Origin: Candidatus Gottesmanbacteria bacterium | Lineage (GTDB): Bacteria > Patescibacteriota > Microgenomatia > UBA10105 > UBA927 | Assembly (NCBI GenBank): GCA_963701185.1 | Contig: OY969569.1 | Location: 795,548 to 859,547 of the forward strand | DNA length: 64,000 bases | Direction: 5' to 3' | Part shown: piece by piece, positions 1,541-50,512 of the stretch | Layout: each line of letters starts with the position of its first letter | How positions within the stretch are numbered: the first letter of the stretch is position 1 | Position numbers and translations under genes: made by a program | Notes under the pieces: generated by a model | What the model was told of the DNA's origin: nothing | The model's input: only the letters and a program-made list of their open reading frames with translations | Databases searched by the model: none

Positions 1541-1580
1541 TTGTTTTTGCGCCTCAAAACCGGTAAAATAAGACTCTGAC

Positions 1581-1652
1581 GTCAGGGTAGCTCAGTGGTA
1601 GAGCGGCAGTATCATAAACTGCATGTCGAGAGTCCGATCCTCTCCCCTGACA
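1581..1652 (+). tRNA. tRNA-Met (anticodon CAT), CCA not encoded
   Basis: Hand-folded cloverleaf. Acceptor GTCAGGG/CCCTGAC, D-arm GCTC-AGTGGTA-GAGC, anticodon stem GCAGT/ACTGC with loop AT-CAT-AA, T-arm GAGAG-TCCGATC-CTCTC, discriminator A. Total 72 nt. It lacks the three consecutive G-C pairs of an initiator tRNA, so it is an elongator Met or an Ile2 (lysidine) tRNA. Confidence 0.8.
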
Positions 1653-2015: not shown

Positions 2016-2051
2016 GCGTGTTCAATGATATTATAGGACTCTAACATCTTT

Positions 2052-2912: not shown

Positions 2913-2932
2913 ATATACGCTACAATTGCCTC

Positions 2933-5803: not shown

Positions 5804-5857
5804 AACTCTATTGTTCCATGGTCCCCGCAGGGTGTCAACGCGAAAATTCTCCGGTTT

Positions 5858-6421: not shown

Positions 6422-6428
6422 AGAATCC

Positions 6429-20051: not shown

Positions 20052-22469
20052 CTACGGCGCAACCTCCTGCCAGGATACACCTAGTTCTTTCATAGTCTCC
20101 GGCATGGTGAAAATCAGTTGCGGATTGTAGATAAACAGCTCGGATGGCGTGGTGGTGCTGGCTGCGCCCCCGATGTCGCGGCCAAGCGTAAAATTACCGG
20201 CTACAAATGTCCCCGTTCCGACAAACTGCACGGAACCTGTACCGGTTATAAACGTCCCCGCGGGGGACGTTATATAGACTCCCTGAAGAGCGCCCACCGA
20301 CGGATCAACGGTGATATTACCTTTGACGATAAATGCAATAAACCCTCCCGGCGTTATGGTAATCGGCGTATTGATCGTCAAATTTCCGCTGACGAACACA
20401 ACGACTTTATCACCGCTTGGAATAGTCCACGCGGGAGCATTGATCGTAAGATCTCCGTCGTAATAATAGGGGGTAGCCGATCCGGCCAGACGACTGGATA
20501 GGGTTGTCGTTCCTGCTGTCGGGGCAGGCGAGCCGAACTGAGTGAACATCAGTTGGTAAAAATTGGTAGCGGGAGACGTGTCGTTGGCGAGCCAGTTTTT
20601 ACTGCTGACCCACGTGTTCCCCTGTCCCGCCCCGCTGTCAAAATCATAATTCCCGCCGTACGTGGCGACACCGGGATATCCGCCTGCTCCGTCCTTAATA
20701 AATACCTGCGCCGGGTGCGGTACCGGCACAAAGGATTGCAGCATGCCGCTGGCATAGACGTCGCCGCCCGCGGCCTGGCTCCATGCAATCCCCTGTACGT
20801 ATCCGATATCCCACGTTAAGGTATCTCCGGATGCCAAATCTGCCGACATGGTTTCACCGGAAGTTGGAGCAGTTGTCCTTTGCCAACAATATCTGACAGG
20901 TATATACCCACCGGCCGGAGGAGCGGGCTGAATGGTGTATGTTCCGATGGTTGCATTGTTAAATACGACATATGAACTTCCGCTTTGCGTCTGGGGTGCG
21001 GGTTGGGATGCGGAGGACGGGGTAAACTGGTGAATGGTCCCACCGATACCGTTGCCGCCCGCGATGATGTCGGCACAGGTGGCGGACGGAGCAACCTGTA
21101 CCGCCCGCGCCCGGATAGTACCCACTTGGGCACTATAATGCCACCAAAGATCGGCATACCCATCAGCAGATTGGCAATAAGAGGTATCGGACAAACTAAC
21201 AGAACTTGACATTACGGGTGGATTTCCATGACAACCAGTACTATTATAACAAAGTGTATAACCGACATCATAACCGGCCGGTACGGTAGCGGAAACGGTC
21301 CTTGTTTTATTTGCGGCGGGAAAAGAAAAAGAATAGGGGTTTGTTGTCGTTTGAGTAAACAGATCGCTCAGCGTTACCGTTTGAGAATCGAGCGGGGCTT
21401 GATTTGGCTGTTTAAAACCCTGGATCGTACACGTCGACGGACAAGGGACCGGCACTTTTTGCTGGGGACTACAATACACATTATTGTACGCATTGTTGTT
21501 CATAAAAACATCGCCAATCATATGTCCCTGATACCCTCCTAAGTCGGTTTGCGGAATAGTGGCCTGCCATGTCCCCCCGCCCATATTTGTGGCCGTGTAT
21601 GTTTTCATAATCGTAGCCCACCCCCGGTCATCATATCCGTTCACAGTTACCCCTGTGACATTTTGCACACCTAATGCGCTCACCACCCAGCTTCCTCCGT
21701 TGTTTACACATACCGGGGCAGAGGAGGTACCGGTACACGTCGGCGGGACGCAGGGAACCGGCACCTTTTGCTGGGGACCACAATTCACATTACTGAACGA
21801 ACCGTTGCTCATAAAAACATCGCCAATCATATGTCCCTGATACCCTCCTAAGTCGGTTTGCGGAATAGTGGCCTGCCATGTCCCCCCGCCCATATTTGTG
21901 GCCGTGTATGTTTTCATAATCGTAGCCCACCCCCGGTCATCATATCCGTTCACTGTTACCTGGCCGGCGTTTTGCACGCCTGACGCAGTGACCACCCAAC
22001 TTCCTCCGTTGTTTACACATACCGGGACAGAGGACGTGCCACCGCACGTCGGCGGGACGGAGGGTGTGGGGGTTGCCGCCGGTGGCGGTGTGGGGGTCGG
22101 ACCTGGCGGTGTGGGGGTCGGACCACTCCAATTACAATAAGCACCCGCCTCTTCTATGCAAACACAATTACCAACAGCACATGCATTCCCTGCAGAACAA
22201 TATGACTGGGACATATCAGAGCACTGATTGCATGTCCACCTGGTTCCGCTATCACAGTAATTGCAAGTGTTGCAATTCGGCACGACTGGGTTACAGGCAA
22301 TCCCAGAACCGCAATAATTCAGTTCGTGTGTTTGTCTTTCTTGGGAATGGCAATGATAAGGTTCGGAACCGCTTCCTGTGCAGGAAGCCTTAACATCCGT
22401 CTTAACAAAAATTAGACCTAAAGAAAAAAATAATATGGTTAGAAAGAGTCTTAATAAGTTTTTACACAT
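20052..22469 (-). CDS. large exported Cys-rich / Pro-Thr-linker protein with an internal tandem-duplicated ~103-aa domain (putative surface protein)
   Basis: Signal peptide MCKNLLRLFLTILFFSLGLIFVKTDVKA, then a Cys-rich module, then a PTPTPP linker. Two near-identical domains follow ('C.GTSS.PVCVNNGGSWVV...VNGYDDRGWATIMKTYTATNMGGGTWQATIPQTDLGGYQGHMIGDVFM'), then a long Gly/Thr-rich C-terminal region. Confidence 0.55.
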   Translation of the reverse strand: MCKNLLRLFLTILFFSLGLIFVKTDVKASCTGSGSEPYHCHSQERQTHELNYCGSGIACNPVVPNCNTCNYCDSGTRWTCNQCSDMSQSYCSAGNACAVGNCVCIEEAGAYCNWSGPTPTPPGPTPTPPPAATPTPSVPPTCGGTSSVPVCVNNGGSWVVTASGVQNAGQVTVNGYDDRGWATIMKTYTATNMGGGTWQATIPQTDLGGYQGHMIGDVFMSNGSFSNVNCGPQQKVPVPCVPPTCTGTSSAPVCVNNGGSWVVSALGVQNVTGVTVNGYDDRGWATIMKTYTATNMGGGTWQATIPQTDLGGYQGHMIGDVFMNNNAYNNVYCSPQQKVPVPCPSTCTIQGFKQPNQAPLDSQTVTLSDLFTQTTTNPYSFSFPAANKTRTVSATVPAGYDVGYTLCYNSTGCHGNPPVMSSSVSLSDTSYCQSADGYADLWWHYSAQVGTIRARAVQVAPSATCADIIAGGNGIGGTIHQFTPSSASQPAPQTQSGSSYVVFNNATIGTYTIQPAPPAGGYIPVRYCWQRTTAPTSGETMSADLASGDTLTWDIGYVQGIAWSQAAGGDVYASGMLQSFVPVPHPAQVFIKDGAGGYPGVATYGGNYDFDSGAGQGNTWVSSKNWLANDTSPATNFYQLMFTQFGSPAPTAGTTTLSSRLAGSATPYYYDGDLTINAPAWTIPSGDKVVVFVSGNLTINTPITITPGGFIAFIVKGNITVDPSVGALQGVYITSPAGTFITGTGSVQFVGTGTFVAGNFTLGRDIGGAASTTTPSELFIYNPQLIFTMPETMKELGVSWQEVAP
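21470..22100. repeat. tandem duplication (2 x ~309 nt) within the large exported protein gene
   Basis: 21502..21660 is essentially identical to 21811..21969, an offset of 309 nt. The plus-strand shadow ORFs 21559.. and 21868.. begin with identical 31 aa. Confidence 0.8.
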
Positions 22470-22471: not shown

Positions 22472-23062
22472 TTATATTTTATCTATTATGAAAAATCGAT
22501 CTTTTTTCACCCGCTCTGTCGCGAATCTATCTGCTTCACCATTATCAATTTGATCAGTCGATATGTTTTTATATTTACTAACAATATAAACACTCATCCA
22601 ATAAGCATAATCAAATAAACCTTCAATTTGCTCTTTGTTTTGTAAATAGGCAGGATCTTCTACGGAGATATCGATAATTACCTCTCCATCCGGTGTTACT
22701 TTCGCGCTGGCTTCTGTAATTTTGGCCTTGTTCTTAGGATCAGTTTCAAGAAGGAAACCGTCGGAGACTTGCGGCACAAGAGTAATTTTTAGTGCCTTGG
22801 CAGTAAACCTTTTTTCTATAATATTAAAATTGGCAACACCGTTATCTTTCCAGAATCCAATCGTGGTTAGCTCGTTATAAAGTTTATCCTGATCTTTGGC
22901 GGAAAGACGATACCCTTCAATTTTTGAGTCAATGACAATTTGCCGTTTGGGGGTAAAAAAAGAAAACGTATTGGTAAGAGAAAAATACTTGAATATTAAG
23001 TAAGAGGAGAACAATCCAAGTAATACAAGAGCTACTAATAAAATGATTTTTAATTTTTCCAT
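22472..23062 (-). CDS. hypothetical membrane-anchored protein in an AT-rich segment
   Basis: N-terminal TM (IILLVALVLLGLFSSYLIF). Local A+T is clearly higher than the flanks. Confidence 0.4.
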   Translation of the reverse strand: MEKLKIILLVALVLLGLFSSYLIFKYFSLTNTFSFFTPKRQIVIDSKIEGYRLSAKDQDKLYNELTTIGFWKDNGVANFNIIEKRFTAKALKITLVPQVSDGFLLETDPKNKAKITEASAKVTPDGEVIIDISVEDPAYLQNKEQIEGLFDYAYWMSVYIVSKYKNISTDQIDNGEADRFATERVKKDRFFIIDKI

Positions 23063-23162: not shown

Positions 23163-24674
23163 TTACTCAAACGTAACATTAAACAAACCCTGATCCCCAT
23201 TCGTACAGAAATTATTATTAGCTCTACAATTAAAAGCTTCGTAAATAGGGTTAGGCATCCAACCTTGCCTTCTAATTCCTTTGGTTATTGTGACACCAGC
23301 CCTACCTAAACCATCGGCAATAATACGCATTACGGCATCTTTTCGGTCCCAGTCAGAACTAATATTTGATAAAAATGAAGATCTACTGATAACAATAAGC
23401 GTACCTTCATTATCAAAGTAGGCCATGAGAGGGGAGGTCTCGGTTGCCCCAAGATCATCCAAAATACTTAAACCGCAAATTCGTTCAGAATTTAGCAACC
23501 TTTCTCGGATGTTTGTGAATTCATCTCGGTTTACTACAAAAATTTTAGCTCTACCAAGCGAACCCACGATACTGTCATAAAACCTTTCATCCGTGGTATT
23601 TCTATAAGAACCTATGATTAGGGTTTCACCCTCTGCCATTTTTTGATAGTTGTAAGTATCATTTACAATCCACCCCCATGCTCTATCCATTGCTGCTGGA
23701 TCCACCTGTATGCTATCTATCCCTGCATAATCTAAAACTGAGTTGGCATACCGAACTTCCAGTTCCCCGCTTTCTGATATATTTTCTCCCCTTTGTGGAA
23801 ATTCGGCATTTGTATCTATAATACTTTGTAATTCTTGGCATACTTTTTCTGTTGGGGTGGCTGTTGGTGTTTCAGTTGGCATAGCAGTTTCGGTTTTGCT
23901 GGGTTCCGGAGTGGGGGCTGATGTTTCTGTGGTTGTTACCGCCGGTGCCGGTGGGGCGGGGAGTACCGTCGGCGTCACGGAAAACTCACCTCTGGCGGTA
24001 TTCACGGGTTTAAAAACAACATTAATGACATTCGTCGTTGTTTCCGGCGTCTGCGTGGGGGAAACCATCTTTTCCCGGCCGGTAGCCTCCCGGATGAAGG
24101 AAAAAGTCTCTCCGTCATACTCCATTTTAAACGGCGCTATCGACACCCTATGGTCCGTCCCCAGGGTGGCCGCGTCATAGATGCCTTCCGGCCCCGCGGC
24201 TGTCCCTTCCAGTACGAGCATTGTTGCTTCGGATGAATTCGCCTGCGTGTCATGCGTGATGAGAAATATTGCACTGCCGACGGGGGCGTACTCCTCTCCT
24301 CCGGGTTTTTTCACCTCTACGGGAACAACGCAAAACGCATACTGCTTGGTCGTATCAAGAGTGCCGTCTGCCTTTTGCAGATGAAATGTTTCGAGGGTTG
24401 CGCCGGTGGTATCGGACGGGTTGGTGGCACACAGCAAATTTCCCGTCAGGCGGGCTTCATACCCTGCACTATTGGAAAAAGGCTCCGCAGCCCACGGCAG
24501 CATTGCTTTGGCCGCGTCAACGGTAAGAAGCGAGGTTGCTGTTTCCGGTATCACCGTTGCTTCAACCTGACAGCCGGCAAGCACGCTTGCGGCAGTACCG
24601 AGCGCTATGACTGATTCTACAGGCTTAGCAAATGCTTTAGTTCGATCGGGCAACAATACTTCCCCCATATGCAC
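23163..24674 (-). CDS. hypothetical exported protein with a Pro/Thr-rich linker
   Basis: 503 aa. Linker 'PAPPAPAVTTTETSAPTPEPSKTETAMPTETPTATPTEK'. No known domain recognised. Confidence 0.4.
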   Translation of the reverse strand: MHMGEVLLPDRTKAFAKPVESVIALGTAASVLAGCQVEATVIPETATSLLTVDAAKAMLPWAAEPFSNSAGYEARLTGNLLCATNPSDTTGATLETFHLQKADGTLDTTKQYAFCVVPVEVKKPGGEEYAPVGSAIFLITHDTQANSSEATMLVLEGTAAGPEGIYDAATLGTDHRVSIAPFKMEYDGETFSFIREATGREKMVSPTQTPETTTNVINVVFKPVNTARGEFSVTPTVLPAPPAPAVTTTETSAPTPEPSKTETAMPTETPTATPTEKVCQELQSIIDTNAEFPQRGENISESGELEVRYANSVLDYAGIDSIQVDPAAMDRAWGWIVNDTYNYQKMAEGETLIIGSYRNTTDERFYDSIVGSLGRAKIFVVNRDEFTNIRERLLNSERICGLSILDDLGATETSPLMAYFDNEGTLIVISRSSFLSNISSDWDRKDAVMRIIADGLGRAGVTITKGIRRQGWMPNPIYEAFNCRANNNFCTNGDQGLFNVTFE

Positions 24675-24845
24675 CTCTTATAACTTATAGTATACCACTT
24701 CTGTCAAAAATTGCACTTTTCCTAAAAAAAACTCCGCTCGGCGCGGAGTTCTATCATGGATTTTCCATCCTCTATGTGAGAGAGATATTCTCGGATATGC
24801 TTTATCATAGGCACACTGTATACTAACACTAGTCAGTGTAGACTA

Positions 24846-27527
24846 TTGCCAAACTCACGTCAATCTATGGGGGAATCACTCGGCGCACCAAATAAAAACA
24901 GCGGAGAGGCGATGCTTCAGAGTTTTCCGCCCCACGTCAGGAGGGAGTGGTTTGATGCGCATCCGAGTATCTCCGGCGCAAAGCGGTTATTGCTTCCTGC
25001 TGATACTGTTTTAGCAATACGGCTGGAATCCAAGATCACCCCACAGGAGCTCATTGATGTGGTGGATCTCAGAAACAGGGAGGCGGCCATTGATCAAAAA
25101 CTCAAAACGGAAAAGCCGGAAACGTTTTTTTCTTCTGAATACCGGCGGCTCTACGCGATCGCGCGCGAACAAGGCCCGACAGAACATGTCTTACGTGAGG
25201 CGCTGGCGCTCAGTATTGCCGCCGCAAAACACGCATACGGAACGGCAGGAAAACCGTTTGATGTATGGGGCACCCAGCGCATCGCGATGCTACGGATCAC
25301 CAAAAATCTCCTGCAAGCCGCCAGTCCCGGACTTGTGGCGGATCTGCGGACCGGGATGGGAAAAAGCGCCGTGGTTGCCATGATTACCATACCGGTCGGC
25401 CTCATGGTGAAAGACCACTGGGATGTTGTCAGCCGGACACCTCTTTCGCGCATGGACAATGCCCGGCGGTTTTCGGCGCTCGGAGATCTCTTGGGCATCA
25501 AAAACGCAGAAGTGACGGAATCGTCGACATGCATCTGGAAAAACGGCAGACGCGGCACGTATATAAGCCTGGATCCTAAAAGAGACGTGCGGACTATCGC
25601 CATGAAAGACAATCAGGTGACCTTTGCAACGCGGCCCGACATTGCCTCGTATATTTTAACGCACTATGCAGGCGGGCAGTTTCGGACACTGCAGGACATC
25701 GTCCGGCCCGCACGACGGGGATGCATTGTCGATGAAATCGACGCCGCGTTTATCGATGAGGCGTCTCACCTGCTTATCATCTCCGGTCCCGCCGAAGAAA
25801 CGCCCGGGGCCGTCCGCGTCTATTGGGAACCGACTGCCTATCCCAAGGATACGACGGATTCTGATATTCCGTCTAAAAGAATTTCGCGCCGGCTCTATAC
25901 AAAGCATATGTCGCGGCTCCAACGCGCCATGGAAAACGACGTGCATCGGGCGCGGGCCGCACTTGGGGAAAACACGGCGGCGGCGGGGGATGAGAATACT
26001 GCTTTTTCTTTTGCATTACTGCAAAAGATATTCTCGTTTGAAGACGAGCTGCGCCGTCAGGATCGTTTTCAAATACACAGACCGTTTTTCACTCCCGACG
26101 GACGACTGACCGCGGACGGACAGTATGATCTGTTGCGGCGGTTTTACAGTTCTGTTGCCGGCATACCCTATAACAGTCAGGAGCTTATCCCGCAGGAATG
26201 GGACAAATTCCTTTCAATACTTTTCCCTGCCCACATCATCGAAACCATCGGGGCGGGTATGCGCCTGCGGCCGGAAAAAGATTATTTTATAAAAGATCGC
26301 AACATTGTCGTCCAATCGCCGTTAACAGGCTGGCCGCGGCCGCGGCAGGAATTTGACCCGCTCACCACATTTGCCCTCTACGCCAAAGAGTCGCTTCGCG
26401 CTCAGCTCGACGTTCCGACGACGCTTCATGAAACAGCGGATGCGTTTTCCTCTCCGGAACTGGATGCAATATTCTACACCAAAATGATCGGCCTGACCGG
26501 AACAGGACTGCAGGCCGCAGACTGGTTCCGCAGGGTTCGCGGCATGGATATCACAGCCTGTCCTCCTGAATTTGCCGAAACAATAGACGATACCGATCCC
26601 TACATCGTGGTTCGGAATGGAGAGACAAAAAAACAACACCTGGAAGACTATCTCAAAGCCCTTCCGGACCCGTCTGTTCCCGTTCTTATTGACGTATCAT
26701 CCAGACAGGAACAACAGACGGCCGTCGACCTTTTACAGACGCTCTACCCGGATGACCGGATTCAGGTCATTTCTGCGGTCAATGCGCAGGACGCTCAGGA
26801 AAAATTTGACAAAGCCGGGCAGCCGGGCATGAAAACGGTCGTGCTTCTTATGGCCGGAAGAGAGGTGGATATTCTCGTGGATGATGCGCTGGAACACATC
26901 GGCGGACTGCGGGTAGTGTCAATGAGTCCGCGGACGTTGGCGCGCAGTGAACAACAACTGAAAGGCCGCACCGGAAGAGCGGGGAAGTCCGGCGCATACC
27001 GCTGTCTTGTATCGGCGGACGATGAGGTCTTTGCGCTGCTGACGCCGGACCAGCAGAAAAAAGCCGCACAATACATCCGGGGCGGCAATACGGAAAAAAT
27101 AAAACAGGTTATCGCGCGGGGACAGCAAAAACATGAAGAACGGCTCCGGGAACAAAACGCCGCATTTGAACGGATCTACGGGCCGCTTGTACTCATCCGC
27201 CGCCGCATGCTGCGGCTTTCGCCTGCACAATTTGATGCCGTCACTATTTTTTGGCAGGATTTCCTGACACTGAATCAAACATGGGGGGCAAGCCTCGGAT
27301 TTCTCACGCCGCCGACAGGATTAAAAGAGCATCAGGTAAACACGCTGTGGAAACATCATGTCGTGGGGATGTTTGAAACGGCATTGGCGCGGACAACCGA
27401 GCTCATGGAACAGTCAAAAACAACGACTGCAATGACCCGCGGCCGCATGCGGGACATTATAGGGGACGAGATGGGCGCCGCTATGAATAATTTTGGTTTT
27501 TCCGTCGGGCCGATTTCCGGCACTTGA
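24846..27527 (+). CDS. SecA-like DEAD-box ATPase, highly divergent (preprotein-translocase SecA paralogue/orthologue)
   Basis: SecA blocks are recognisable but diverged. 'PFDVWGTQRIAMLRI' matches SecA 'RHFDVQLIGGMVLH'. Walker A 'LRTGMGKSAVVAMITIPVGL' matches '[20 protein letters not shown]'. 'CIVDEIDAAFIDEASHLLIISGP' matches '[20 protein letters not shown]'. 'MIGLTGTG' matches 'LAGMTGTA'. 'GRTGRAGKSGAYRCLVSADDEVF' matches '[20 protein letters not shown]'. No C-terminal zinc finger. Confidence 0.55.
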   Translation: MPNSRQSMGESLGAPNKNSGEAMLQSFPPHVRREWFDAHPSISGAKRLLLPADTVLAIRLESKITPQELIDVVDLRNREAAIDQKLKTEKPETFFSSEYRRLYAIAREQGPTEHVLREALALSIAAAKHAYGTAGKPFDVWGTQRIAMLRITKNLLQAASPGLVADLRTGMGKSAVVAMITIPVGLMVKDHWDVVSRTPLSRMDNARRFSALGDLLGIKNAEVTESSTCIWKNGRRGTYISLDPKRDVRTIAMKDNQVTFATRPDIASYILTHYAGGQFRTLQDIVRPARRGCIVDEIDAAFIDEASHLLIISGPAEETPGAVRVYWEPTAYPKDTTDSDIPSKRISRRLYTKHMSRLQRAMENDVHRARAALGENTAAAGDENTAFSFALLQKIFSFEDELRRQDRFQIHRPFFTPDGRLTADGQYDLLRRFYSSVAGIPYNSQELIPQEWDKFLSILFPAHIIETIGAGMRLRPEKDYFIKDRNIVVQSPLTGWPRPRQEFDPLTTFALYAKESLRAQLDVPTTLHETADAFSSPELDAIFYTKMIGLTGTGLQAADWFRRVRGMDITACPPEFAETIDDTDPYIVVRNGETKKQHLEDYLKALPDPSVPVLIDVSSRQEQQTAVDLLQTLYPDDRIQVISAVNAQDAQEKFDKAGQPGMKTVVLLMAGREVDILVDDALEHIGGLRVVSMSPRTLARSEQQLKGRTGRAGKSGAYRCLVSADDEVFALLTPDQQKKAAQYIRGGNTEKIKQVIARGQQKHEERLREQNAAFERIYGPLVLIRRRMLRLSPAQFDAVTIFWQDFLTLNQTWGASLGFLTPPTGLKEHQVNTLWKHHVVGMFETALARTTELMEQSKTTTAMTRGRMRDIIGDEMGAAMNNFGFSVGPISGT

Positions 27528-27550: not shown

Positions 27551-27570
27551 ATGTGGACAAGTTATCCACA
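27551..27570. promoter_or_regulatory. DnaA boxes immediately upstream of dnaA
   Basis: 'TGTGGACAA' (one mismatch to TGTGGATAA) and a perfect 'TTATCCACA' at 27562-27570, two nucleotides before the dnaA ATG. Confidence 0.6.
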
Positions 27571-27571
27571 T

Positions 27572-28948
27572 ATGGACATACAAAAACTCTGGAAGTCGGT
27601 ATTGTCGGAACTTGAACTGTCGGTTTCAAAAGCGACATTTCAAACGCATTTCGCCCATTCCGAACTCGTCTCGTTTGAAGGGGGAGTCGCCACCATTGGC
27701 TTTACCAGCCCTCTTATGCGGACGCTCGTTGAAACCCGATATTATTCCCTTGTCAAAAGCGTGTTGGACCACCAGGCAAAACAAAACACAAGCCTCGTTT
27801 TCGTTGTCGTTGCCAAAAAGGAAACGCTTGACCCCGCCAGCGCGGGACCGCTCTTCGCCCAAACGCTGGACCGGGAGGTCATAAGCATTTCCTCCGTCGC
27901 GCGCCGTCTTCATATCCGCCCCGGGGCCACATTCGAAAGCTTTGCCGTATCGACAACCAACCAGATGGCGTATGCGGCGGCAACCGCCGTTGCCAAAAAC
28001 CCGGGCACGGCGTACAACCCCCTGTTTTTTTACGGCGGCACCGGAGTAGGGAAGACCCATCTTATGCACGCCATTGCAAACCAGCTTCTTGCCGTCCGGC
28101 CGGAAATGCGTATTGTCTATTGCATGGGAGAGGAATTTCTCAATGAAATCGTGGAGGCAATCCAGACCAAATCAGCGCGGCAGTTTAAACAAAAGTACAG
28201 GAGCGCCCAGCTCCTTTTGGTGGATGACGTCCAGTTTATCGCGGGCAAACAGACGGCGCAGGAAGAATTTTTCCATACGTTTAACACGGTGCACCGCGAG
28301 GGGGGACAGATTGTCCTCACGAGCGACCGGCCGCCGTCTGAAATTTCGCGGCTTGAGGACCGCCTGCGCAGCCGTTTCGAGGGAGGGCTCACGGTTGACG
28401 TGGCGGCGCCGGATTTTGAACTGCGCGTCGCCATTGCAAATATTAAGGCTGACGCCATGGGGCTTGCCGTTCCTCCGGACGCGGCACAACTCGTCGCGGC
28501 AAACATCACCGACACGCGCGCCATTGAGGGGTTCTTGCGGCGGCTCACCACGGAAGCGGCAACCCGGAAGTCTACGGTTACCGCGGAGCTTGTCGCGTCG
28601 CTGTTAAACATTAAAAACCATGGGGATGGCGTCACTGCCCCGTCTGCGTCCGCAAAGCGCGTCAGTCCGCAGGAGGTGTTGGACTGCGTCGCGGCGTATT
28701 ACGGCCTGAAAACTACGGCGCTCAAAGGCACCAAGCGCGACCGGCCGATAGCCAGACCACGCCAGGTCTTTATGTACTTGTGCCGCACGGAGCTCGGGTT
28801 AACCCATGAAGACATCGGTGGCTCATTGGGGGGGCGCGACCACACGACGGTTATGCACGGCGTGGAAACGATTACCCGCGAATTGTCCACAAACACGCGC
28901 CTTCGGGAGGCGGTGGAGGGGATAAAACAAAAACTATGGGCCTACTAA
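27572..28948 (+). CDS. dnaA: chromosomal replication initiator protein DnaA
   Basis: AAA+ Walker A 'GGTGVGKTHLMHAIANQ', Walker B 'LLLVDDVQFIAGK', sensor 'IVLTSDRPP', and a C-terminal DnaA-box-binding HTH 'RQVFMYLCRTELGLTHEDIGGSLGGRDHTTVMHG'. Start placed at MDIQKLW because the upstream ATG region contains the DnaA boxes. Confidence 0.9.
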   Translation: MDIQKLWKSVLSELELSVSKATFQTHFAHSELVSFEGGVATIGFTSPLMRTLVETRYYSLVKSVLDHQAKQNTSLVFVVVAKKETLDPASAGPLFAQTLDREVISISSVARRLHIRPGATFESFAVSTTNQMAYAAATAVAKNPGTAYNPLFFYGGTGVGKTHLMHAIANQLLAVRPEMRIVYCMGEEFLNEIVEAIQTKSARQFKQKYRSAQLLLVDDVQFIAGKQTAQEEFFHTFNTVHREGGQIVLTSDRPPSEISRLEDRLRSRFEGGLTVDVAAPDFELRVAIANIKADAMGLAVPPDAAQLVAANITDTRAIEGFLRRLTTEAATRKSTVTAELVASLLNIKNHGDGVTAPSASAKRVSPQEVLDCVAAYYGLKTTALKGTKRDRPIARPRQVFMYLCRTELGLTHEDIGGSLGGRDHTTVMHGVETITRELSTNTRLREAVEGIKQKLWAY

Positions 28949-28956
28949 TAAGAAAG

Positions 28957-29136
28957 TTATCAACTTATCCACCGCTACCAACTATTTATCCACTTTGTTA
29001 TCCACACGATCTCCACAGATAAAACGATTGTTTTGAGTCGTTGACACGAGACGTTAAAAAGCATACACTTTTCCACGCCGTTTTCTATTACTACTACTAT
29101 TGGATTATATAGAAGAAAAACAAAAACAAACCCTGT
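28957..29136. promoter_or_regulatory. oriC-like DnaA-box cluster plus AT-rich region between dnaA and dnaN
   Basis: TTATCCACC (28965-28973), TTATCCACT (28987-28995), TTATCCACA (28998-29006), TCCACAGAT (29012-29020), followed by AT-rich sequence up to dnaN. Confidence 0.6.
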
Positions 29137-30243
29137 ATGAATATTTCAATTCTCCAAGAAAACCTACTAAAAGCACTCACGCGAACGGGCAGAATCGTTG
29201 CACAAAAAACCCAATTGCCCATCATGCAGAATGTGCTTCTTGCGACGGATGACGCGCGACTCAAAATTGTTGCAACCACCATGGAAACGACAGAGGTTGT
29301 GTGGGCGGGCGCCAAGGTGGAAAGCGAAGGGGGGATATGTGTCTCTTCGAGACTGCTGACTGATCTTGTGATGTCTCTCCCTCAGGATACCATCCATATG
29401 GTGGCCAGAGAGGGGTCTCTTCATGTGAGGTGTAACGGCGTCAACGCGACCATTCCCGGCGTGCCCGCGTCCGAATTCCCTCCTGTTTCTTCCCTGAAAA
29501 AGAAAACAGGAATGAAGCTGGAAAAAACGACGTTTCTGGGCGCGCTCACCGGCGTGCTGTTTGCGGCCGCCACGGACGAGGGGAGGCCGCTTCTGACCGG
29601 CGTCAAAATCGCAACCGGCGACGGATCGGCGCTGTTTGCGGCCACGGACGGGTACCGCCTGTCCATGAAAAAAGTCGCGTCGGGAAAGTTTGGAGATATT
29701 CATTTGGTGATTCCTGCGCGGGCGCTGTCGGAGGTTGTGAAGGTGAGCCAGGAAGAAAAAGAAGTAGGCGTCGTAGAGATGGTAGAGACAGAAGAAGGGC
29801 AGATGGTCTTTACGATTGGAGACACGGAGATCCACACAAGGCCGATTGCCGGCGAATATCCCGATATCGAAAAAATTGTCCCTGCGCGGCACAATACGCG
29901 GGTATTGGTTGATAAAACAAGCCTCCTGCGCGCGGTCAAGTCTGCCTCTATATTTGCCCGGGACAACGCAAACATTCTCCGGCTTCATATTGAAAATCAG
30001 AAAATAATTGTGTCGGCCAACACTCCGCAGGTCGGGGAAAATCATGTGGAGGTGGAGGCCAAAGTGGACGGCGACGGGGGAGACATCGCCTTCAACAGCA
30101 GGTTTTTGCTGGAGTTCCTCAACGGGTTTGCCGGCGAAGAGCTTTTGTTTGAAATGACGGGGTCATTAAACTCCGGAGTCTTCCGCCCCGTGAAGGACGA
30201 CTCCTATCTTCACATCATTATGCCGGTGAGAGTTCAGAGTTGA
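29137..30243 (+). CDS. dnaN: DNA polymerase III beta sliding clamp
   Basis: 368 aa. 'MNISILQENLLKALTRTGRIVAQKTQLPIMQNVLL' plus the three-domain length. Canonical position after dnaA. Confidence 0.85.
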   Translation: MNISILQENLLKALTRTGRIVAQKTQLPIMQNVLLATDDARLKIVATTMETTEVVWAGAKVESEGGICVSSRLLTDLVMSLPQDTIHMVAREGSLHVRCNGVNATIPGVPASEFPPVSSLKKKTGMKLEKTTFLGALTGVLFAAATDEGRPLLTGVKIATGDGSALFAATDGYRLSMKKVASGKFGDIHLVIPARALSEVVKVSQEEKEVGVVEMVETEEGQMVFTIGDTEIHTRPIAGEYPDIEKIVPARHNTRVLVDKTSLLRAVKSASIFARDNANILRLHIENQKIIVSANTPQVGENHVEVEAKVDGDGGDIAFNSRFLLEFLNGFAGEELLFEMTGSLNSGVFRPVKDDSYLHIIMPVRVQS

Positions 30244-31229
30244 ATGGGTTCAGCCGGGATCAGCCAGAGAAACAGCGTTGCTTTTTGGATGGAGCCGGTA
30301 TTCGCTACCCCTGTTCCGGTCATGTAGATGGCGGGTAGCAGCAGGTTCTTCTGCGGCGCATAGACGATGGCGCTCTCCTCTATAACAAAGCGAGAAAAGC
30401 CGGGAATTTCTCCCTGCTCGGGCGTCTGTGGGTTGTGCGTATCCAAAAGCGTCCCTCGCCCCGCGGCAAGATTTTCAAGAATCTGATCGCCCGTCAAAAG
30501 CGGCACTGCGGCTCCCGCCTGAAATGACGCAGGCGGCGGGACAATGTTTGCAAAACGGATGATGCCGCCGCTGTCGGCGATGACGGAAACGGGCTCAATA
30601 CTTAAGTCGGGCGTCAACAGCGGGTAGGACGCCACGGTATAGGAATAGAAGTAATTTTTAAATGATGTCGGGGAGGGCGTGTCCAGTACGAGGAGTCCGT
30701 CAAAAGGGCCGCTTGTTGTTCCTGCGGCTTGTATGGAAAGGTTTGGTGTCGCAGGAACGAGGGTCTGTAAAAATTGCCGTACGGCGGCGTCCTGTGTGAT
30801 CGTATTTGGAGCCTGTTTGCTCTTTACCTGGCGGAAGGTGACAGAAATTATCCCGTTTGTTTGAGTGACCGCAAGGGCAGCCTCATCCGGCCGGGACCAC
30901 GTTTTGGTATATGAGCCGCCGCGGATAAGCGTGCTTGGGGTAGCGTCCAGGTCAAGGGCGGCAGCGGCGTTTCCGGCAGTTTTTTCAACAGATGAAAGAG
31001 GCGCCGGCTGAAACGTATATATCGGAAGCGATGCGGGAATGGTGGGAGGCGCGGAGAATGAGAACGCGACCTTTGCCGGCTGAGTAAATATGCCAGTCGG
31101 CCCGGGCGCGGCAAGTGTCGGTTCGGGGTGGGAGGAAGGGGGAGGCGCGGACTGACGCACAACAAGCGCCAGCACGGCGGCAACACCGACGATAAAAATA
31201 ATCCCAACAAACAGTAGTTTTTTATTCAT
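30234..31229 (-). CDS. hypothetical exported protein (last gene of the T4SS-like operon)
   Basis: N-terminal anchor 'LLFVGIIFIVGVAAVLALVV', then a Pro-rich stretch. Lies directly downstream of the M23 peptidase gene. Confidence 0.4.
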   Translation of the reverse strand: MNKKLLFVGIIFIVGVAAVLALVVRQSAPPPSSHPEPTLAAPGPTGIFTQPAKVAFSFSAPPTIPASLPIYTFQPAPLSSVEKTAGNAAAALDLDATPSTLIRGGSYTKTWSRPDEAALAVTQTNGIISVTFRQVKSKQAPNTITQDAAVRQFLQTLVPATPNLSIQAAGTTSGPFDGLLVLDTPSPTSFKNYFYSYTVASYPLLTPDLSIEPVSVIADSGGIIRFANIVPPPASFQAGAAVPLLTGDQILENLAAGRGTLLDTHNPQTPEQGEIPGFSRFVIEESAIVYAPQKNLLLPAIYMTGTGVANTGSIQKATLFLWLIPAEPIQL

Positions 31230-31230
31230 A

Positions 31231-33273
31231 CTATTTTCTCCCCGTGGTTATCGCCGTTGCCGGACACGCCTTTGTGCATCCTGACACATTTGATACACAG
31301 CCGTTAATCGCTTCGGGCGACAGCTTTGGGTTCCCGGTGGGCACAAAATCCAGAACGTTGCCGCCCGAAAGTACGCCAAAGTGCAGATGGGTGCCTGTGG
31401 AGTTTCCCGTCTGATCCATCCACCCCAACTGCGCGTGCGCGTCAACGTGTTGTCCTGCCCGTACCGCAATGGCACTCTCCAGATGGCCAAAAATGAGCGT
31501 GTACCCATCGTCTGTTTTTAGAATAACATGATTGCCGTACCCTGCATATGCCGGGCTTCCGCCGCATGTGTTGCCGGGGCGCCCGGAATTGTTTGAACAC
31601 CCCCCATAGGCCTCAATGACGGTTCCTGCCCTCGGTGTGTAGACGGGGCCTCCGGAAAAACTGGCAATATCAATGCCGTTTGCCGCCGATCCCGCCGCAT
31701 GTGATGTTCTGGCGGTACAATGTGCCGCAGTGCGCGGCCCCTGGGAAATGTAGCCGCTTGCCGGCCAGCGGCAATCGCCGGAACAGGCAGTAAACTTGCA
31801 CTGCGGATTATCGGGCGTCAGTTGGCAATTGACGACTGGGCCGCCCTCCATGCCGCCCTCGGCGCTTGTGGCAATCGACGTGTCGATCATGGACTGGTTA
31901 AATGCGGGGAGATTTAAGAGGGGGAATATCGGAAGGAAGAAAACAAGGACAACGCCCGCCCCGACAACAAGAATCAGGTTGTCTTCGGGGTTTTTGCTGT
32001 TGCCCATAAACAGAAGGCTTTTGAAGACGGAGACGGCTTTATTAACCGCCCCTTTGAGAAGATCCGCCCCGATCATTATCAATGCGCCCACGCCGCCCGT
32101 GGCGGCCCCGGTAGCCGCCTCCAATCCCAGTTTTGTTACCCCGCTGACCGCCGCCTTTTTTACCCCTGCCTTAATTCCTGCCCGTATGGCATAATTGGCG
32201 CCCGTCCAAACGAGCCGCCGGCCGTAACCCAGGACGACCGGACTGTAACAAGGGATATTGCCCACAACGACCCCCTGCGATGCGACGAGCCGGTATGTTT
32301 CGATATAGGTAATGACGCGTTCGGTTGCCGGACCGCGGAACACCGTTGTGGCGACATCGGAAACGAGGGCGGTAAATTTGGATGTAACTTTTAGCGCGCT
32401 TTTCTGGTCGCTCATCATGCGGTTGGCGTCAGTCTGCAGCGCCGTAAACCAGGAAGAATTTACAAAATCTGCCCCCCACCTGTCCGTCATCGTTCCCATG
32501 ACGGTTTGCGGCAGCGCCTCGGGGTGATTGACAATAGTAGTCAGCGGCTGCAGGAGAATTTTATTGACGACCGCTTCTTTGGCGGCGAGGGGTACGACAG
32601 CGTCCAGCACGGACGCAACACTTTTTTGAAAATCATTGGACGCAAGTATGGAAAAAGATTGTGGGGGCGGAAATGTGCCGGCGGGGGAGGAGAGAACCTT
32701 CGCAGCCTCAGTTGCTTCAACCGCGCGGGGAACGAGCTCTTTGATTTCGCGGTCCGGCTGTTCGGAAGCAAACGAAGCCAGCGCGTGAAAAACGAGCGCT
32801 TTTTCTTCCGGCGGCCCGGGGTAACGGATCGCGGCGCTGATGGCGCCCTGTATCCGCTCCGGTGATACCGGAGCGCCCTCCCGTTCCGGCGGCACGGGCG
32901 CCCGCATTTCGGGGAGCGGTCCATTTGATTTTTTTGCGTTTTCTTTTAGCGCCTCAACGAATTTTTTTGACGCCGTTGCCGCATTGACCCTTTGCTCTTT
33001 TGCCGCGGCAAACTCGCGGTCAAACTCCTCAACCAGTTCGTTAATCTTGGGGTTGATATTTCGCTGGATCCCGTCGGTTTCAGCGGCCGGCATTGTTATT
33101 TCAAAAAAGCGCAGGAACGCCTCGGTTGGCTCTCTGAGAAAAGGCCACGATCCAAAAGGGTTTGCCTCCGGATATTTATTAAAAAACCCTTCAAGCGTTT
33201 CCGGATCCTCCTGGAGCTTCAGCAAGCACCCGAGCGCCCGTTCGATTTCTTGTGATGATGCAAATTCTGCCAT
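31231..33273 (-). CDS. T4SS-associated membrane protein with a C-terminal M23 (lysostaphin-type) peptidoglycan peptidase domain
   Basis: About 420-aa N-terminal region, a TM (LILVVGAGVVLVFFLPIFPLL), then an M23 domain ('PRAGTVIEAYGG...GYGNHVILKTDDGYTLIFGHL...GNSTGTHLHFGV') with the HxH zinc motif. Confidence 0.65.
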   Translation of the reverse strand: MAEFASSQEIERALGCLLKLQEDPETLEGFFNKYPEANPFGSWPFLREPTEAFLRFFEITMPAAETDGIQRNINPKINELVEEFDREFAAAKEQRVNAATASKKFVEALKENAKKSNGPLPEMRAPVPPEREGAPVSPERIQGAISAAIRYPGPPEEKALVFHALASFASEQPDREIKELVPRAVEATEAAKVLSSPAGTFPPPQSFSILASNDFQKSVASVLDAVVPLAAKEAVVNKILLQPLTTIVNHPEALPQTVMGTMTDRWGADFVNSSWFTALQTDANRMMSDQKSALKVTSKFTALVSDVATTVFRGPATERVITYIETYRLVASQGVVVGNIPCYSPVVLGYGRRLVWTGANYAIRAGIKAGVKKAAVSGVTKLGLEAATGAATGGVGALIMIGADLLKGAVNKAVSVFKSLLFMGNSKNPEDNLILVVGAGVVLVFFLPIFPLLNLPAFNQSMIDTSIATSAEGGMEGGPVVNCQLTPDNPQCKFTACSGDCRWPASGYISQGPRTAAHCTARTSHAAGSAANGIDIASFSGGPVYTPRAGTVIEAYGGCSNNSGRPGNTCGGSPAYAGYGNHVILKTDDGYTLIFGHLESAIAVRAGQHVDAHAQLGWMDQTGNSTGTHLHFGVLSGGNVLDFVPTGNPKLSPEAINGCVSNVSGCTKACPATAITTGRK

Positions 33274-33277
33274 AGCC

Positions 33278-35176
33278 TTATACCTTTTCTACGGTAAATA
33301 TCGGGCGGGAGCTTTTATCTTCTTCGGTTATCATGGTTGGTTTTTCCTGCGGCGCGGTAGCCTTTATCTGAACCTGTTTTTCTAATTCCTGTGGTTTAGT
33401 TGTGGCAAGCGCGTGTTCTTCAGGTGAAGAAATGACCCTAATGGCCGCGTGGGCCGGTCCGGCAAAAAACAACCCCTCGCCGATATCGGCAGACAAGAGA
33501 AGGTGCTGTTCCCCCTCGGAGAGATAGAAGACATCAGCGACCTTGTCGATGGCGGCGGACGACTGTTTAAGCAGTATCTGAACACTGCTGTTTTGAATGA
33601 TGGATTTTCCGAGGTCAACGGTTAAAAAATCTTCGACATCCTGAGTAATGGTCGTGAGACCGAGATAATATTTGCGCGCTCGTTTGGCAATAGAATTGAG
33701 GAATGCCCCGGAATCAGGATATTTCATCATGTACCACGCCTCGTCAACGATGAGGATCCGGCGTTTGGCGTCGCGGCGTATTTTGGTCCAGATATAGTCA
33801 AGGATAAGGTACATGGCGATGGGCCGCAGCTCATCCTCCAAATCCCGGATGGAGAATACCGTGAGCTGGTTTCGTATTTCCACGTTGGTCTGCCGGTCAA
33901 AAATCCCGACCAGACTCCCTTTGACGAATTTTTCTATGCGGTCGGCAAGACCCCGCGCAGTCGGATCTTCCATACCGGTAAGGGCTTTATACAAATCTTC
34001 CATGAGCGGCGGCTCGCGGGTCTGGGTGGCGGGATCCGGCGTAATGCCTTTTTGTTTGTAGGTAAGGATCAGGGCCCGGTCAAGGAGGGCATCTTCCGTG
34101 GGAGTGAGCTTTCCCATGACAACGCGGAAAAATCCGTGCAGGGACAATATCTTTTGGTTGAGCTCGCTTTCCCCCCCTGCGCCTTTCGTTTGGGTGAACA
34201 AAGACAGGTCAAACGGATTGATTTTTGTCGTTGAGCCGAAGTGGAAGCGGATGTATTCGCCGCCTAAGGCGTGGGAGAGTGATTCGTATTCTGATTCCGG
34301 ATCGATGACGATGACCTCCGTGTCGAACATAAGACTGCGCATAATTTCCAGTTTCACCATGTACGATTTTCCAGAACCGGATTTTCCGAAGACCACCGTA
34401 TTTGCATTCTCTAAGGTAAACCGGTCAAAAATAACAAGGCTGTCATTATGTTCGTTGATGCCGTACAGAACCCCTTCATTGGCGGTGAGCTCCGATGTCG
34501 TAAACGGAAATGTGGTGGCAAGGGACGTGGTATCCATATTCCTGGTGATAACGAGCCGGTCGCGCCCCATGGGGAGCGTCGTTTTGAAGCCTTCCTCCAT
34601 CTGCAGGATTGCGCGCTTGGTGATAATCAGAAGAGCCGCAAGGGCGGCTTCAACCTGTTTTGTCGTTTTATTGAGGTCCTCCAGATTTTTGGCAGGGACC
34701 GTGATATACAGGGCAAACTGAAAAAAGCGCTGGGAGCCCTTGGCCAGCTCCTGCTGGAGAGATACCGCATCTTCAAGCGCGACTTGAATGGAGGGCTCTG
34801 TTGCCCTTCCGCGCTTCATGTCCGACTGGATTGTGGCCTCCATTTCGCCGACCCTGCGCTTGAGGTTTTCCAACACCTCTTCGCTTTTAGTGGGATAGAC
34901 ATACATGGCAATATCCAGCGTGTGATTGAAAGAAATAAGCGGCTCCAGCCAATTGGCGGATACAAACCGCGGATACCCGGCAACGAAGAGCGTGCGGAAA
35001 TACCGGTCGCCGATTTTTATCGTATCAAAATCCACTTCAATTGCCGGCGGGGCGACGAGGTCTTTTATGGTCATGGGGCCCTGCCTGTCGGCAGGCAGGC
35101 CGCCGTCTCCGGTCGAGGCGGGCATGGGATTGATGAATTTTTTCACTGCAGATTGTACGCGTTTGGTTAGATCCAT
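33278..35176 (-). CDS. virB4: type IV secretion system ATPase VirB4/TraC/TrbE family
   Basis: Walker A 'VVFGKSGSGKSYMVK', Walker B 'ILIVDEAWYMM', 'LGLTTITQDVEDF'. About 630 aa, consistent with Gram-positive/CPR-type VirB4. Confidence 0.8.
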   Translation of the reverse strand: MDLTKRVQSAVKKFINPMPASTGDGGLPADRQGPMTIKDLVAPPAIEVDFDTIKIGDRYFRTLFVAGYPRFVSANWLEPLISFNHTLDIAMYVYPTKSEEVLENLKRRVGEMEATIQSDMKRGRATEPSIQVALEDAVSLQQELAKGSQRFFQFALYITVPAKNLEDLNKTTKQVEAALAALLIITKRAILQMEEGFKTTLPMGRDRLVITRNMDTTSLATTFPFTTSELTANEGVLYGINEHNDSLVIFDRFTLENANTVVFGKSGSGKSYMVKLEIMRSLMFDTEVIVIDPESEYESLSHALGGEYIRFHFGSTTKINPFDLSLFTQTKGAGGESELNQKILSLHGFFRVVMGKLTPTEDALLDRALILTYKQKGITPDPATQTREPPLMEDLYKALTGMEDPTARGLADRIEKFVKGSLVGIFDRQTNVEIRNQLTVFSIRDLEDELRPIAMYLILDYIWTKIRRDAKRRILIVDEAWYMMKYPDSGAFLNSIAKRARKYYLGLTTITQDVEDFLTVDLGKSIIQNSSVQILLKQSSAAIDKVADVFYLSEGEQHLLLSADIGEGLFFAGPAHAAIRVISSPEEHALATTKPQELEKQVQIKATAPQEKPTMITEEDKSSRPIFTVEKV

Positions 35177-35180
35177 AGGT

Positions 35181-35840
35181 TTAGGTTCCCACCGCCTTTT
35201 CGATATTTTCAGCGCTCACAATCGGCGCGCCCTGGTTATAGATTTCGTAAAACAGCCGCACGAGCCGCTCATTGGTTAATTGTTTTGCCGAGAGACCTAT
35301 GCGGTTGCAAAGCCGTATGATTTGGTCCCCTTTGGGGGTAAGGACAATTATGGCCCGTTCGAAAATATAGGGCCTCGGGTACGGGAGGCCCCGCCTTTTG
35401 GACCCGCCAAGAAGCACGTTGGCGCTTGCCCCCAGCTCCAGATATGAAAACGGTACGACAATATAAAACTTTTTATCCAGCACATCTTTCTCCTTGACGG
35501 TGGCCGCCACAAACAGGCGGTATCCGTGCATGGCAGCGGCAAGCTTCGGATTTTTTTGCGTTTTTTCCCTGTCCTCCAGCGTCCGGAGGTATGCCGTCAC
35601 GTCTTTGTGTTGGGTGCGGATCAAAATTTCAATCGGGAAGGAGAGCGAATTTAACAGACCCGCGTACGCGTAAATAATTGCATCCTGTTCCTTTTCGGAT
35701 AGCAATCCGAAATTAACCGCGGTCGCGGATATAACCATGGAGCAGGAGCCGTCGGCGTACATGACCAGACCATGGTCAATGGTTTCTATTTCCGTGAATA
35801 GCTGTGTTGAGGATCTGATGGGTACGATTGGGTCAGGCAT
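35181..35840 (-). CDS. hypothetical T4SS-operon protein
   Basis: ORF 35181..36053 trimmed to Met72 (MPDPIVPIRS) so it does not overlap the upstream gene ending at 35851. Located between the PrgI-like and VirB4 genes. Confidence 0.4.
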   Translation of the reverse strand: MPDPIVPIRSSTQLFTEIETIDHGLVMYADGSCSMVISATAVNFGLLSEKEQDAIIYAYAGLLNSLSFPIEILIRTQHKDVTAYLRTLEDREKTQKNPKLAAAMHGYRLFVAATVKEKDVLDKKFYIVVPFSYLELGASANVLLGGSKRRGLPYPRPYIFERAIIVLTPKGDQIIRLCNRIGLSAKQLTNERLVRLFYEIYNQGAPIVSAENIEKAVGT

Positions 35841-35850
35841 ATGGGTATAA

Positions 35851-38549: not shown

Positions 38550-38587
38550 TTTGACTTTTCTTTAAAAAAATGGTATAAATTTGAACC

Positions 38588-39268: not shown

Positions 39269-39351
39269 AGTGATGATATTAAACGCCGCTTGGCAATACT
39301 ACTGTAATGTAACCTTCGTCTTGCGCCCCACCTCCCACTAGCGATACAATC

Positions 39352-42930: not shown

Positions 42931-42933
42931 ATA

Positions 42934-49370: not shown

Positions 49371-49405
49371 GTATTAATTAAAACTTAGCACTTAGAATTT
49401 AAACT

Positions 49406-50455: not shown

Positions 50456-50512
50456 TTTGAAAATTAAGAAAATAAAAATTGATTAAAAATTGAAAATTTT
50501 AAATTAAAAATT

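Follow-up and report, generated by a model that had tools for sequence, protein, structure and literature searches.

What does a strongly divergent SecA-like ATPase do in an uncultured member of the Patescibacteria? The question is raised by a gene at positions 24846 to 27527 of a 64,000-nucleotide stretch of a Candidatus Gottesmanbacteria contig (OY969569.1), which was analyzed whole and is called the window below. The product could be the housekeeping SecA of this lineage, an accessory paralog dedicated to particular exported proteins, or a SecA-derived motor with another job. Judged by profile scores, it lies outside every described SecA2 family, all of whose cut-offs it misses widely. Because the polypeptide-handling parts of SecA appear to be kept, and the gene is invariably paired with one for an exported protein, the best-supported explanation is an accessory, lineage-restricted SecA paralog that serves as a dedicated SecA2-like export ATPase. 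We hold this reading with moderate confidence.

An intact gene for a SecA-like motor

The open reading frame (ORF) is intact and lies where the first-pass annotation of this DNA had placed it:

24846-27527, forward strand: SecA-like ATPase gene, intact ORF, 893 amino acids (aa) from a TTG start

An alternative ATG start at 24867 is that of the public gene call (P0001, 886 aa, a single-member cluster), and a third candidate, the ATG at 24912, is preceded by a Shine-Dalgarno-like GGAGAGG. The motor motifs that had been claimed, including a GMGKS Walker A and GRTGRAGKSG, were all found. Walker A reads TGMGKS (residues 169 to 174) and Walker B reads DEID within VDEIDAAFIDEASHLLIISGP; motifs III, V, and VI read TGTG, GREVDI, and GRTGRAGKSG, respectively. 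Residues K173, D296, E297, T551, R672, E673, Q704, R708, and R711 are invariant in an alignment of the seven family members described below, which argues for a working ATPase under selection. The motor is predicted to be a catalytically competent, two-lobed DEAD-type ATPase.

The homology to SecA is unambiguous but weak, and far beyond chance. In a Pfam scan the 893-aa protein matched SecA_DEAD (44 bits, 1.5e-11) and P-loop_SecA (42 bits, 1.1e-10), both above cut-off, with no match to SecA_PP_bind (PF01043), SecA_SW (PF07516), or SEC-C. The last of these agrees with the earlier claim that the C-terminal zinc-finger tail is missing. The best NCBIfam SecA model gave 4.7e-33. A PDB sequence search matched Bacillus subtilis SecA to residues 461 to 737 (3.5e-23), and hhalign aligned positions 107 to 785 of the family to residues 65 to 626 of canonical SecA with a probability of 100 (E = 1e-42). 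The names of the best canonical SecA matches were a taxonomic mix that included Campylobacter and gave no clue to the source of the paralog.

Scores against curated models were low throughout, at 77 to 114 bits for SecA and SecA2 models with cut-offs of 725 to 1493; the best NCBIfam SecA model reached 114.2 bits against a cut-off of 862. Membership in the housekeeping SecA family was judged by the curated cut-offs of TIGR00963, NF009538, and NF006630, and the score against TIGR00963 was 82.5 bits versus 800. All seven family members were equally weak against the housekeeping models (best E value, 8e-39). The SecA2-only models scored below cut-off as well (TIGR04221, 81.4 versus 725; NF012136, 86.4 versus 1100; TIGR04397, 91.7 versus 1085), as did the accessory Sec (aSec) SecA2 model TIGR03714 (84.4 versus 930). 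Every NCBIfam SecA2 cut-off was missed roughly 9- to 13-fold, and every SecA cut-off roughly 8- to 19-fold.

A small family restricted to Patescibacteria contigs

An exhaustive HMMER scan of 1.84 billion (1.84e9) protein representatives returned 10 below E = 1e-30: the query protein, six full-length relatives (829 to 877 aa, 29 to 38% identity), and three fragments. The next score, that of the first canonical SecA, was 105 bits, down from 243. The full-length members are all single-member clusters, and they come from Patescibacteria or Microgenomates metagenome-assembled genomes (MAGs) or metagenomes. No relative above 38% identity was found among 5.8 billion protein clusters or among the 1.84e9 representatives, and querying the 5.8-billion-cluster database with a profile of the family returned the same canonical SecAs as the single sequence had, and no family members. 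Scanning genome contigs with the SecA-like protein identified a single locus, in the MAG that encodes the closest family member, P0070, and did not return the genome of the window itself; scanning metagenome contigs added three partial members only. A full-text literature search found no paper linking "SecA-like" with Patescibacteria.

A mobile-element origin is unsupported: a search of viral contigs found no family member, and tblastn against phages and plasmids gave distant SecA or SecA2 matches only. A known defense gene was likewise rejected, as PADLOC gave no matches. One family member has been named "preprotein translocase subunit SecA" automatically by JGI, a label that could mislead marker-gene or completeness analyses.

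The same HMMER scan also brought up two orphan SecA-like proteins outside the family. P0081 (998 aa) has no Pfam match at all, and P0083 (806 aa) has a weak SecA_DEAD match plus Helicase_C and ResIII. Going by these two sequences, further uncharacterized SecA-derived motors are present in metagenomes.

Predicted structure: a SecA fold without the wing domain

An AlphaFold2 model computed from a 35-sequence alignment of family members and canonical SecAs had a pLDDT of 87.6 and a pTM of 0.87. The 36 best Foldseek matches in the PDB were all SecA or SecA2 (E = 6e-26; 4uaq and 6sxh among them), with the highest TM-scores for SecY-bound SecA (6itc, 5eul, and 3dl8) at ~16% sequence identity. DinG/XPD-type helicases appeared as weak fold matches lower in the list. 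The model and the alignments were read as the following domains, including two nucleotide-binding domains (NBDs) and a counterpart of the preprotein cross-linking domain (PPXD):

24894-25250, forward strand: family-specific N-terminal helical region, residues ~17-135, with helices at 17-131 predicted at pLDDT >90
25251-25799 and 26451-26546, forward strand: NBD1, DEAD-like motor, residues 136-318 and 536-567; Walker A at 25350-25367, Walker B at 25731-25742
25800-26450, forward strand: PPXD-like domain, residues 319-535, made up of two stem strands, an insert (~340-460), and a core (461-535)
26547-27050, forward strand: NBD2, residues 568-735; motif V GREVDI, and motif VI GRTGRAGKSG at 26964-26993
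27090-27416, forward strand: predicted scaffold long helix (749-788) and helix-loop-helix (793-817, loop 818-827, 828-857)

The hhalign alignment starts at position 107 of the family and position 65 of canonical SecA, and nothing in canonical SecA was found to correspond to the first ~105 residues. This N-terminal region is conserved within the family. The PPXD-like core aligns both to the PPXD of B. subtilis SecA (phmmer) and to the SecA profile (hhalign). The ~110-aa helical insert is family specific, a gap with respect to canonical SecA, and enlarges the bulb of the domain in the model. The hhalign alignment also covers the scaffold long helix, and in the AlphaFold2 secondary structure the final helix spans residues 865 to 883.

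Only 4 residues separate the scaffold helix from the helix-loop-helix, which leaves no helical wing domain. The helix-loop-helix itself (793 to 857) is provisionally called a two-helix finger. A weak local hhalign alignment (E = 0.013) sets the family pattern "W.dfL...aromatic" on the SecA pattern "W.EHL..LRaY," with F820 at the position of the fingertip Tyr; the relatives have Y, Y, Y, Y, W, and L there. In the predicted structure, which had been proposed as a check on domain retention, a PPXD-like core and the scaffold long helix appear to be kept, and the helical wing domain is lost. Overall, the parts that the model retains are both NBDs, a clamp (PPXD) enlarged by the insert, the scaffold helix, and a putative two-helix finger with an aromatic tip. 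The parts apparently lost or replaced are the wing domain, the C-terminal ribosome- and SecB-binding tail, and the canonical N terminus, which gives way to the family-specific helical domain. These are the parts tied to the capture of general clients and to ribosome or SecB contact, and SecA2 proteins have been described with the same pattern (PMC7503281).

An exported-protein gene is the constant neighbor

The upstream side is visible in six family loci (the window, L003/L004, L007, L008, L014, and L015), and in all six the SecA-like gene is paired divergently with a gene for an exported protein of 486 to 535 aa. In the window, this partner and the genes beyond it are as follows:

24675-24845, no strand: AT-rich divergent intergenic region (GC 0.38) between the lipoprotein and SecA-like genes
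23163-24674, reverse strand: lipoprotein-like gene, 503 aa, lipobox LAGC at residues 32-35, two domains, Pro/Thr-rich linker at ~235-275
22472-23062, reverse strand: protein with a single N-terminal transmembrane segment, 196 aa, GC 0.34, third-position GC (GC3) 0.31 versus ~0.53 in neighbors
20052-22469, reverse strand: exported Cys-rich Pro/Thr-linker protein, 805 aa, DUF7305-like C-terminal domain

The partners share a layout. Five of the six, the exception being L014, have a short N terminus that closes with a weakly hydrophobic segment and a lipobox-type cysteine (LAGC, IVAC, TASC, ATAC, or MGC). All six have a Pro/Thr/Ser-rich segment at ~220 to 300 (weaker in L014), which in most loci lies between a first and a second domain. 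Their sequences are nearly unalignable: BLASTP comparisons were mostly nonsignificant, with homology detected in two pairs (L003/L014, 1e-14; L007/L015, 5e-12). The shared layout and the patchy residual homology are consistent with one very fast-evolving orthologue. A single-sequence structure model of the 503-aa lipoprotein was unusable (pLDDT 35). The first-pass annotation had tentatively linked the ATPase to exported Cys-rich, Pro/Thr-linker, and pilin proteins nearby. The divergent pairing supports a link to exported proteins, and Cys-rich and Pro/Thr-linker exported proteins do lie next to the gene. The pilin part was not confirmed: a prepilin-motif scan of the window found none.

The intergenic region contains a strong hairpin with a 10-bp stem followed by U8 (24722 to 24752, reverse strand), ~50 nucleotides (nt) upstream of the start codon of the lipoprotein gene. 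Its folding is better than that of shuffled sequences (z = -2.8), although a simple terminator scan does not list it. A role as a leader attenuator, or in terminating antisense transcription, is conceivable.

Around this pair, the locus has a frame that is also present in genomes without the SecA-like gene. A YidC search marked the organism as Gottesmanbacteria-like (Microgenomates) and gave >100 clusters at 69 to 89% identity, from relatives far closer than the remaining family carriers. Four such relatives were inspected at the syntenic locus (L012; L013, a 1.006-Mb contig; L016; and L017), with YidC identities of 81 to 89%. The closest, L012, has 89% identity in YidC, 91% in DnaA, and 87% in DnaN. 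The SecA-like gene is absent from the syntenic locus in all four (best chance tblastn match, E = 0.39). Their flanks are intact, with rnpA-yidD-yidC-jag and the DUF7305-like gene, plus dnaA or a Bac_transf/ABC-2 cluster, and at the site of the SecA-like gene each has a single gene for a membrane protein of 599 to 742 aa. The frame common to noncarriers has two sides: rpmH-rnpA-yidD-yidC-jag with the gene for the DUF7305-like exported protein and, opposite, the genes for a ~200-aa membrane protein, Bac_transf, and an ABC-2 exporter. Since carriers and noncarriers have this frame in common, the SecA-like and lipoprotein genes together act like a cassette within a variable region of surface-protein genes.

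The GC content of the SecA-like gene is 0.54, the same as that of its neighbors, and its divergence among carriers parallels that of YidC. On these two observations, recent transfer is no likelier than old vertical inheritance in which the gene was later replaced in the closest relatives.

The gene for the 805-aa protein of the window is a conserved flank of the cassette in carriers and noncarriers; the C-terminal ~350 aa of the protein (the DUF7305-like part) are common to all relatives. The N terminus is Cys rich, and the protein also has Pro/Thr linkers and an internal tandem duplication of ~100 aa (CGGTSS.PVCVNNGGSWVV...QQKVPVPC). The 196-aa transmembrane protein has no homologue in the related loci; its gene belongs to the variable region of this genome only and looks like a recent insertion.

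In three of the noncarriers the gene at the site was mapped to the forward strand at 5317-7116 (L012), 1498-3399 (L013), and 1605-3650 (L016). The products, of 599 to 681 aa, share a soluble N-terminal domain of ~190 aa (58 to 67% identity), an "L(L/M/V)GC" membrane segment, a Pro/Thr linker, and variable C-terminal domains. The 742-aa protein of L017 has a different N terminus. The ~190-aa domain was compared with the N-terminal domain of the SecA-like protein, and no relationship was found.

A proposed dedicated export ATPase

Under the explanation that we favor, a dedicated SecA2-like export ATPase, the protein would dock on the general SecYEG channel and use cycles of ATP to drive its own client protein through the membrane. 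The first client would be the ~500-aa fast-evolving lipoprotein encoded head-to-head, perhaps joined by the neighboring Cys-rich Pro/Thr-linker protein. The new N-terminal domain and the PPXD insert may supply client specificity. Gene and client would form a replaceable cassette, bordered by the rpmH-rnpA-yidD-yidC-jag block and, on the other side in most relatives, by a cluster for polysaccharide export. We infer all three of its central elements: the use of SecYEG, the identity of the client, and a canonical SecA elsewhere in the genome.

Several points weigh against this explanation. No canonical secA was seen within the 64-kb window, which is part of a contig of ~995 kb. The Walker A of P0070, present in L002/L005/L006, reads GMGKD, not GMGKS. 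As the protein recurs unchanged in four MAG records, this is no sequencing error, and Mg-ATP binding or ATPase activity may be impaired in this member. The provisional call of a two-helix finger draws on predicted secondary structure and the alignment at E = 0.013. The partners are too divergent for orthology across all loci to be proven, and the gene pairing is linkage, not a demonstration of a substrate relationship. Finally, no dedicated channel, chaperone, or glycosyltransferase set of the accessory Sec type is linked in all loci.

Comparison with described SecA-type systems

The SecA2 genes of Clostridioides difficile and Bacillus anthracis adjoin the S-layer or surface-protein genes that they serve. 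The SecA2-only systems of these species, Listeria, and Mycobacterium are similar to the system proposed here in having an extra SecA-type ATPase, although its coexistence with a canonical SecA is inferential in our case. They are also similar in lacking the tail, in having a reduced or absent wing domain, and in genomic setting, as the SecA-like gene lies beside that of a variable surface lipoprotein with a putative client role. SecA2 proteins in general are without the C-terminal tail and have reduced wing domains, and C. difficile SecA2 exports S-layer and cell wall proteins (PMC7503281). The C. difficile protein still has an 80-residue wing domain between its scaffold helix and two-helix finger, and in Mycobacterium tuberculosis SecA2 the helical wing domain is reduced or absent (PMC7503281). 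The differences are substantial, however. Scores against the SecA2-only models were 81 to 92 bits versus cut-offs of 725 to 1100, and identity to solved SecA and SecA2 structures is ~16%. The ~105-aa N-terminal region and the ~110-aa PPXD insert are new, and the host belongs to the Patescibacteria/Microgenomates. The earlier suggestion of an accessory SecA2-like protein is favored by the fast rate of change described below, by identities of at most 38%, and by absence from four close relatives, but the protein fits no described SecA2 family.

The aSec SecA2-SecY2 systems of streptococci and staphylococci resemble the locus in linking a SecA paralog to a surface protein with a Ser/Thr/Pro linker, and glycosyltransferases lie near some of the family loci. 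None of secY2, asp1-3, or gtfA/B was found in the window or the seven related loci, and the neighbor here is a two-domain lipoprotein rather than a serine-rich-repeat adhesin.

Another point of comparison is the set of secondary SecA_DEAD proteins of Planctomycetes, Verrucomicrobia, Proteobacteria, and others, which lack all or most of SecA_SW, are patchily distributed, and are of unknown function (Kamneva et al. 2015, PMC4452313). They form a conserved module with three type I secretion-like proteins of the HlyD, OEP, and ABC types (PMC4452313). The SecA-like protein is likewise without SecA_SW and patchily distributed. Unlike those proteins, its family keeps the predicted scaffold helix and finger-like hairpin and is restricted to Patescibacteria contigs. 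In the loci examined, HlyD and OEP genes are absent from the neighborhood, and the ABC genes near some of them are of the ABC-2 Wzm/Wzt type, which noncarriers have as well. Megaplasmid genes annotated "DEAD/DEAH box helicase," which match 55 to 60% of the query at 22 to 25% identity, may be of the secondary SecA_DEAD type.

Alternative explanations

Could the protein be a SecA-derived motor with a job away from SecYEG, such as a cytoplasmic unfoldase or chaperone, a remodeler on the cytoplasmic face of another membrane machine, or a nucleic acid- or replication-linked ATPase? The predicted loss of the wing domain, the replaced N terminus, and the heavily modified PPXD all point in this direction, as do the weak fold matches to DinG/XPD-type helicases and the association of secondary SecA_DEAD proteins without a wing/scaffold domain with type I-like components (PMC4452313). 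However, SecA handles polypeptides with its PPXD core, its scaffold helix, and its two-helix finger, and counterparts of all three appear to be kept, the last as a finger-like hairpin that bears a conserved aromatic residue. SecY-bound SecA structures give the highest TM-scores, and the constant neighbor encodes an exported protein. Adjacency to dnaA is specific to this genome among the family loci, and a role tied to dnaA or oriC was rejected on that ground. We consider such a motor unlikely, although it is the strongest of the alternatives.

It is also conceivable that the protein works within the adjacent cell envelope glycan pathway, for example by coupling the export of a glycosylated envelope protein or by energizing part of the pathway, which comprises a Bac_transf priming transferase, an ABC-2 Wzm/Wzt-type exporter, and glycosyltransferases. 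In L003, L005, L007, and L008, the downstream genes encode a ~200-aa membrane protein (not in L008), Bac_transf, ABC2_membrane, ABC_tran, and glycosyltransferases. The same genes flank the locus in noncarriers L016 and L017, however, and so belong to the frame rather than to the cassette. Other genes lie downstream in the window (dnaA) and in L010, L011, and L014 (AbiEii toxin, IS66 transposase, and pilin-like genes). This makes a glycan function quite improbable.

The notion that this is the sole, unusually divergent housekeeping SecA of the lineage gains something from the intact motor motifs, the JGI name of one relative, and the lack of a canonical secA in the window. Housekeeping SecA is normally more conserved than YidC. 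Across the window, L003, and L007, identities were 30 to 34% for the SecA-like protein, 61 to 66% for YidC, 72 to 80% for Jag, 42 to 45% for Wzy, and 46% for the flippase, so that at these loci the rate of change of the SecA-like protein is roughly double that of YidC and Jag. Its rate is about equal to that of the exported DUF7305-like neighbor (29 to 35%). Despite the >100 close YidC relatives, no homologue above 38% turned up in the 5.8e9 clusters, and the housekeeping cut-offs were missed by the wide margins given above. Moreover, the four close relatives without the gene at this locus, one of which has a 91%-identical DnaA, must export proteins with some other SecA. At ~90% protein identity to such relatives, this genome almost certainly has a canonical SecA too, alongside the SecA-like protein. 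The same four loci contradict the possibility raised earlier, that the only SecA of related genomes is just as divergent. The protein does resemble housekeeping SecA in overall fold, motor motifs, and scaffold helix, and in having a PPXD-like core. In contrast, its 82 to 114 bits versus cut-offs of 800 to 862, its lack of wing and SEC-C tail, its fast evolution, and its absence from the locus of the closest relatives set it apart. On its rate and on that absence, a housekeeping role is very unlikely.

A decaying duplicate without current function, suggested by fast change along the whole protein, patchy distribution, and the one GKD Walker A, is equally improbable given intact ORFs of 829 to 893 aa in seven divergent lineages, invariant catalytic residues, a confidently predicted fold, and conserved synteny with the partner gene.

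Implications of a possible two-gene envelope cassette

Experimental work on accessory SecA paralogs comes mainly from Gram-positive pathogens, in which these proteins deliver S-layer proteins and virulence factors. If a dedicated export ATPase operates here, the assignment of a SecA copy to particular surface proteins would have evolved either independently or very early. The family would also define a minimal working SecA architecture with no wing domain and no tail. The adjacent fast-evolving lipoprotein would be a major surface component of uncultured, episymbiotic, ultrasmall cells, and a candidate factor in attachment to hosts or in escape from phages and immunity.

A bolder and, in our judgment, doubtful extension is that some Microgenomates have a swappable two-gene envelope cassette, made up of a minimal SecA motor (lacking wing and tail, with a new N-terminal domain and an enlarged clamp) and its cognate hypervariable surface lipoprotein, that alternates at one chromosomal site with the one-gene cassette of 600 to 740 aa. 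These would then be two interchangeable delivery solutions for one class of surface protein, and no dedicated SecA2-like export system would have been described before in the candidate phyla radiation.

The dnaA side and other features of the window

The placement of the gene directly upstream of dnaA was confirmed:

27551-28948, forward strand: dnaA, whose public call begins 23 nt past the SecA-like stop; an overlapping TTG lies at 27524, and dnaN follows
27551-29136, forward strand: dnaA and the dnaA-dnaN spacer, with clustered DnaA boxes, a probable oriC

Two DnaA boxes, one of them perfect, lie at 27552 to 27570, at the 5' end of dnaA, and four more, again with one perfect, at 28883 to 29006. 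The count of DnaA boxes across the window is not above chance. The cumulative GC skew has its minimum at 26 to 28 kb of the window, and the dnaA-dnaN region is probably oriC.

After dnaN, a type IV secretion-like set occupies 30234 to 37044 on the reverse strand and includes an M23 peptidase (680 aa), a VirB4/TraG-P-loop ATPase, a TraC-like protein, and a PrgI-family protein with CarboxypepD_reg. The region from 38000 to 44000 is AT rich (GC 0.43 to 0.46) with strong positive GC and AT skew, and the ORFs of 1192 aa (39352 to 42930) and 494 aa (42934 to 44418, reverse strand) have no Pfam match. A complete-looking mevalonate block lies at 48231 to 55114 on the forward strand and encodes HMG-CoA reductase, an HMG-CoA synthase-like/ACP_syn_III protein, thiolase, a GHMP kinase fused to a NUDIX domain, and diphosphomevalonate decarboxylase. 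Near the two ends of the window are a tRNA-Met gene (1581 to 1653, forward strand), upstream of a tyrosine recombinase/integrase gene (2052 to 2912), and a tmRNA gene (61773 to 62185, forward strand; Rfam, 105.6 bits).

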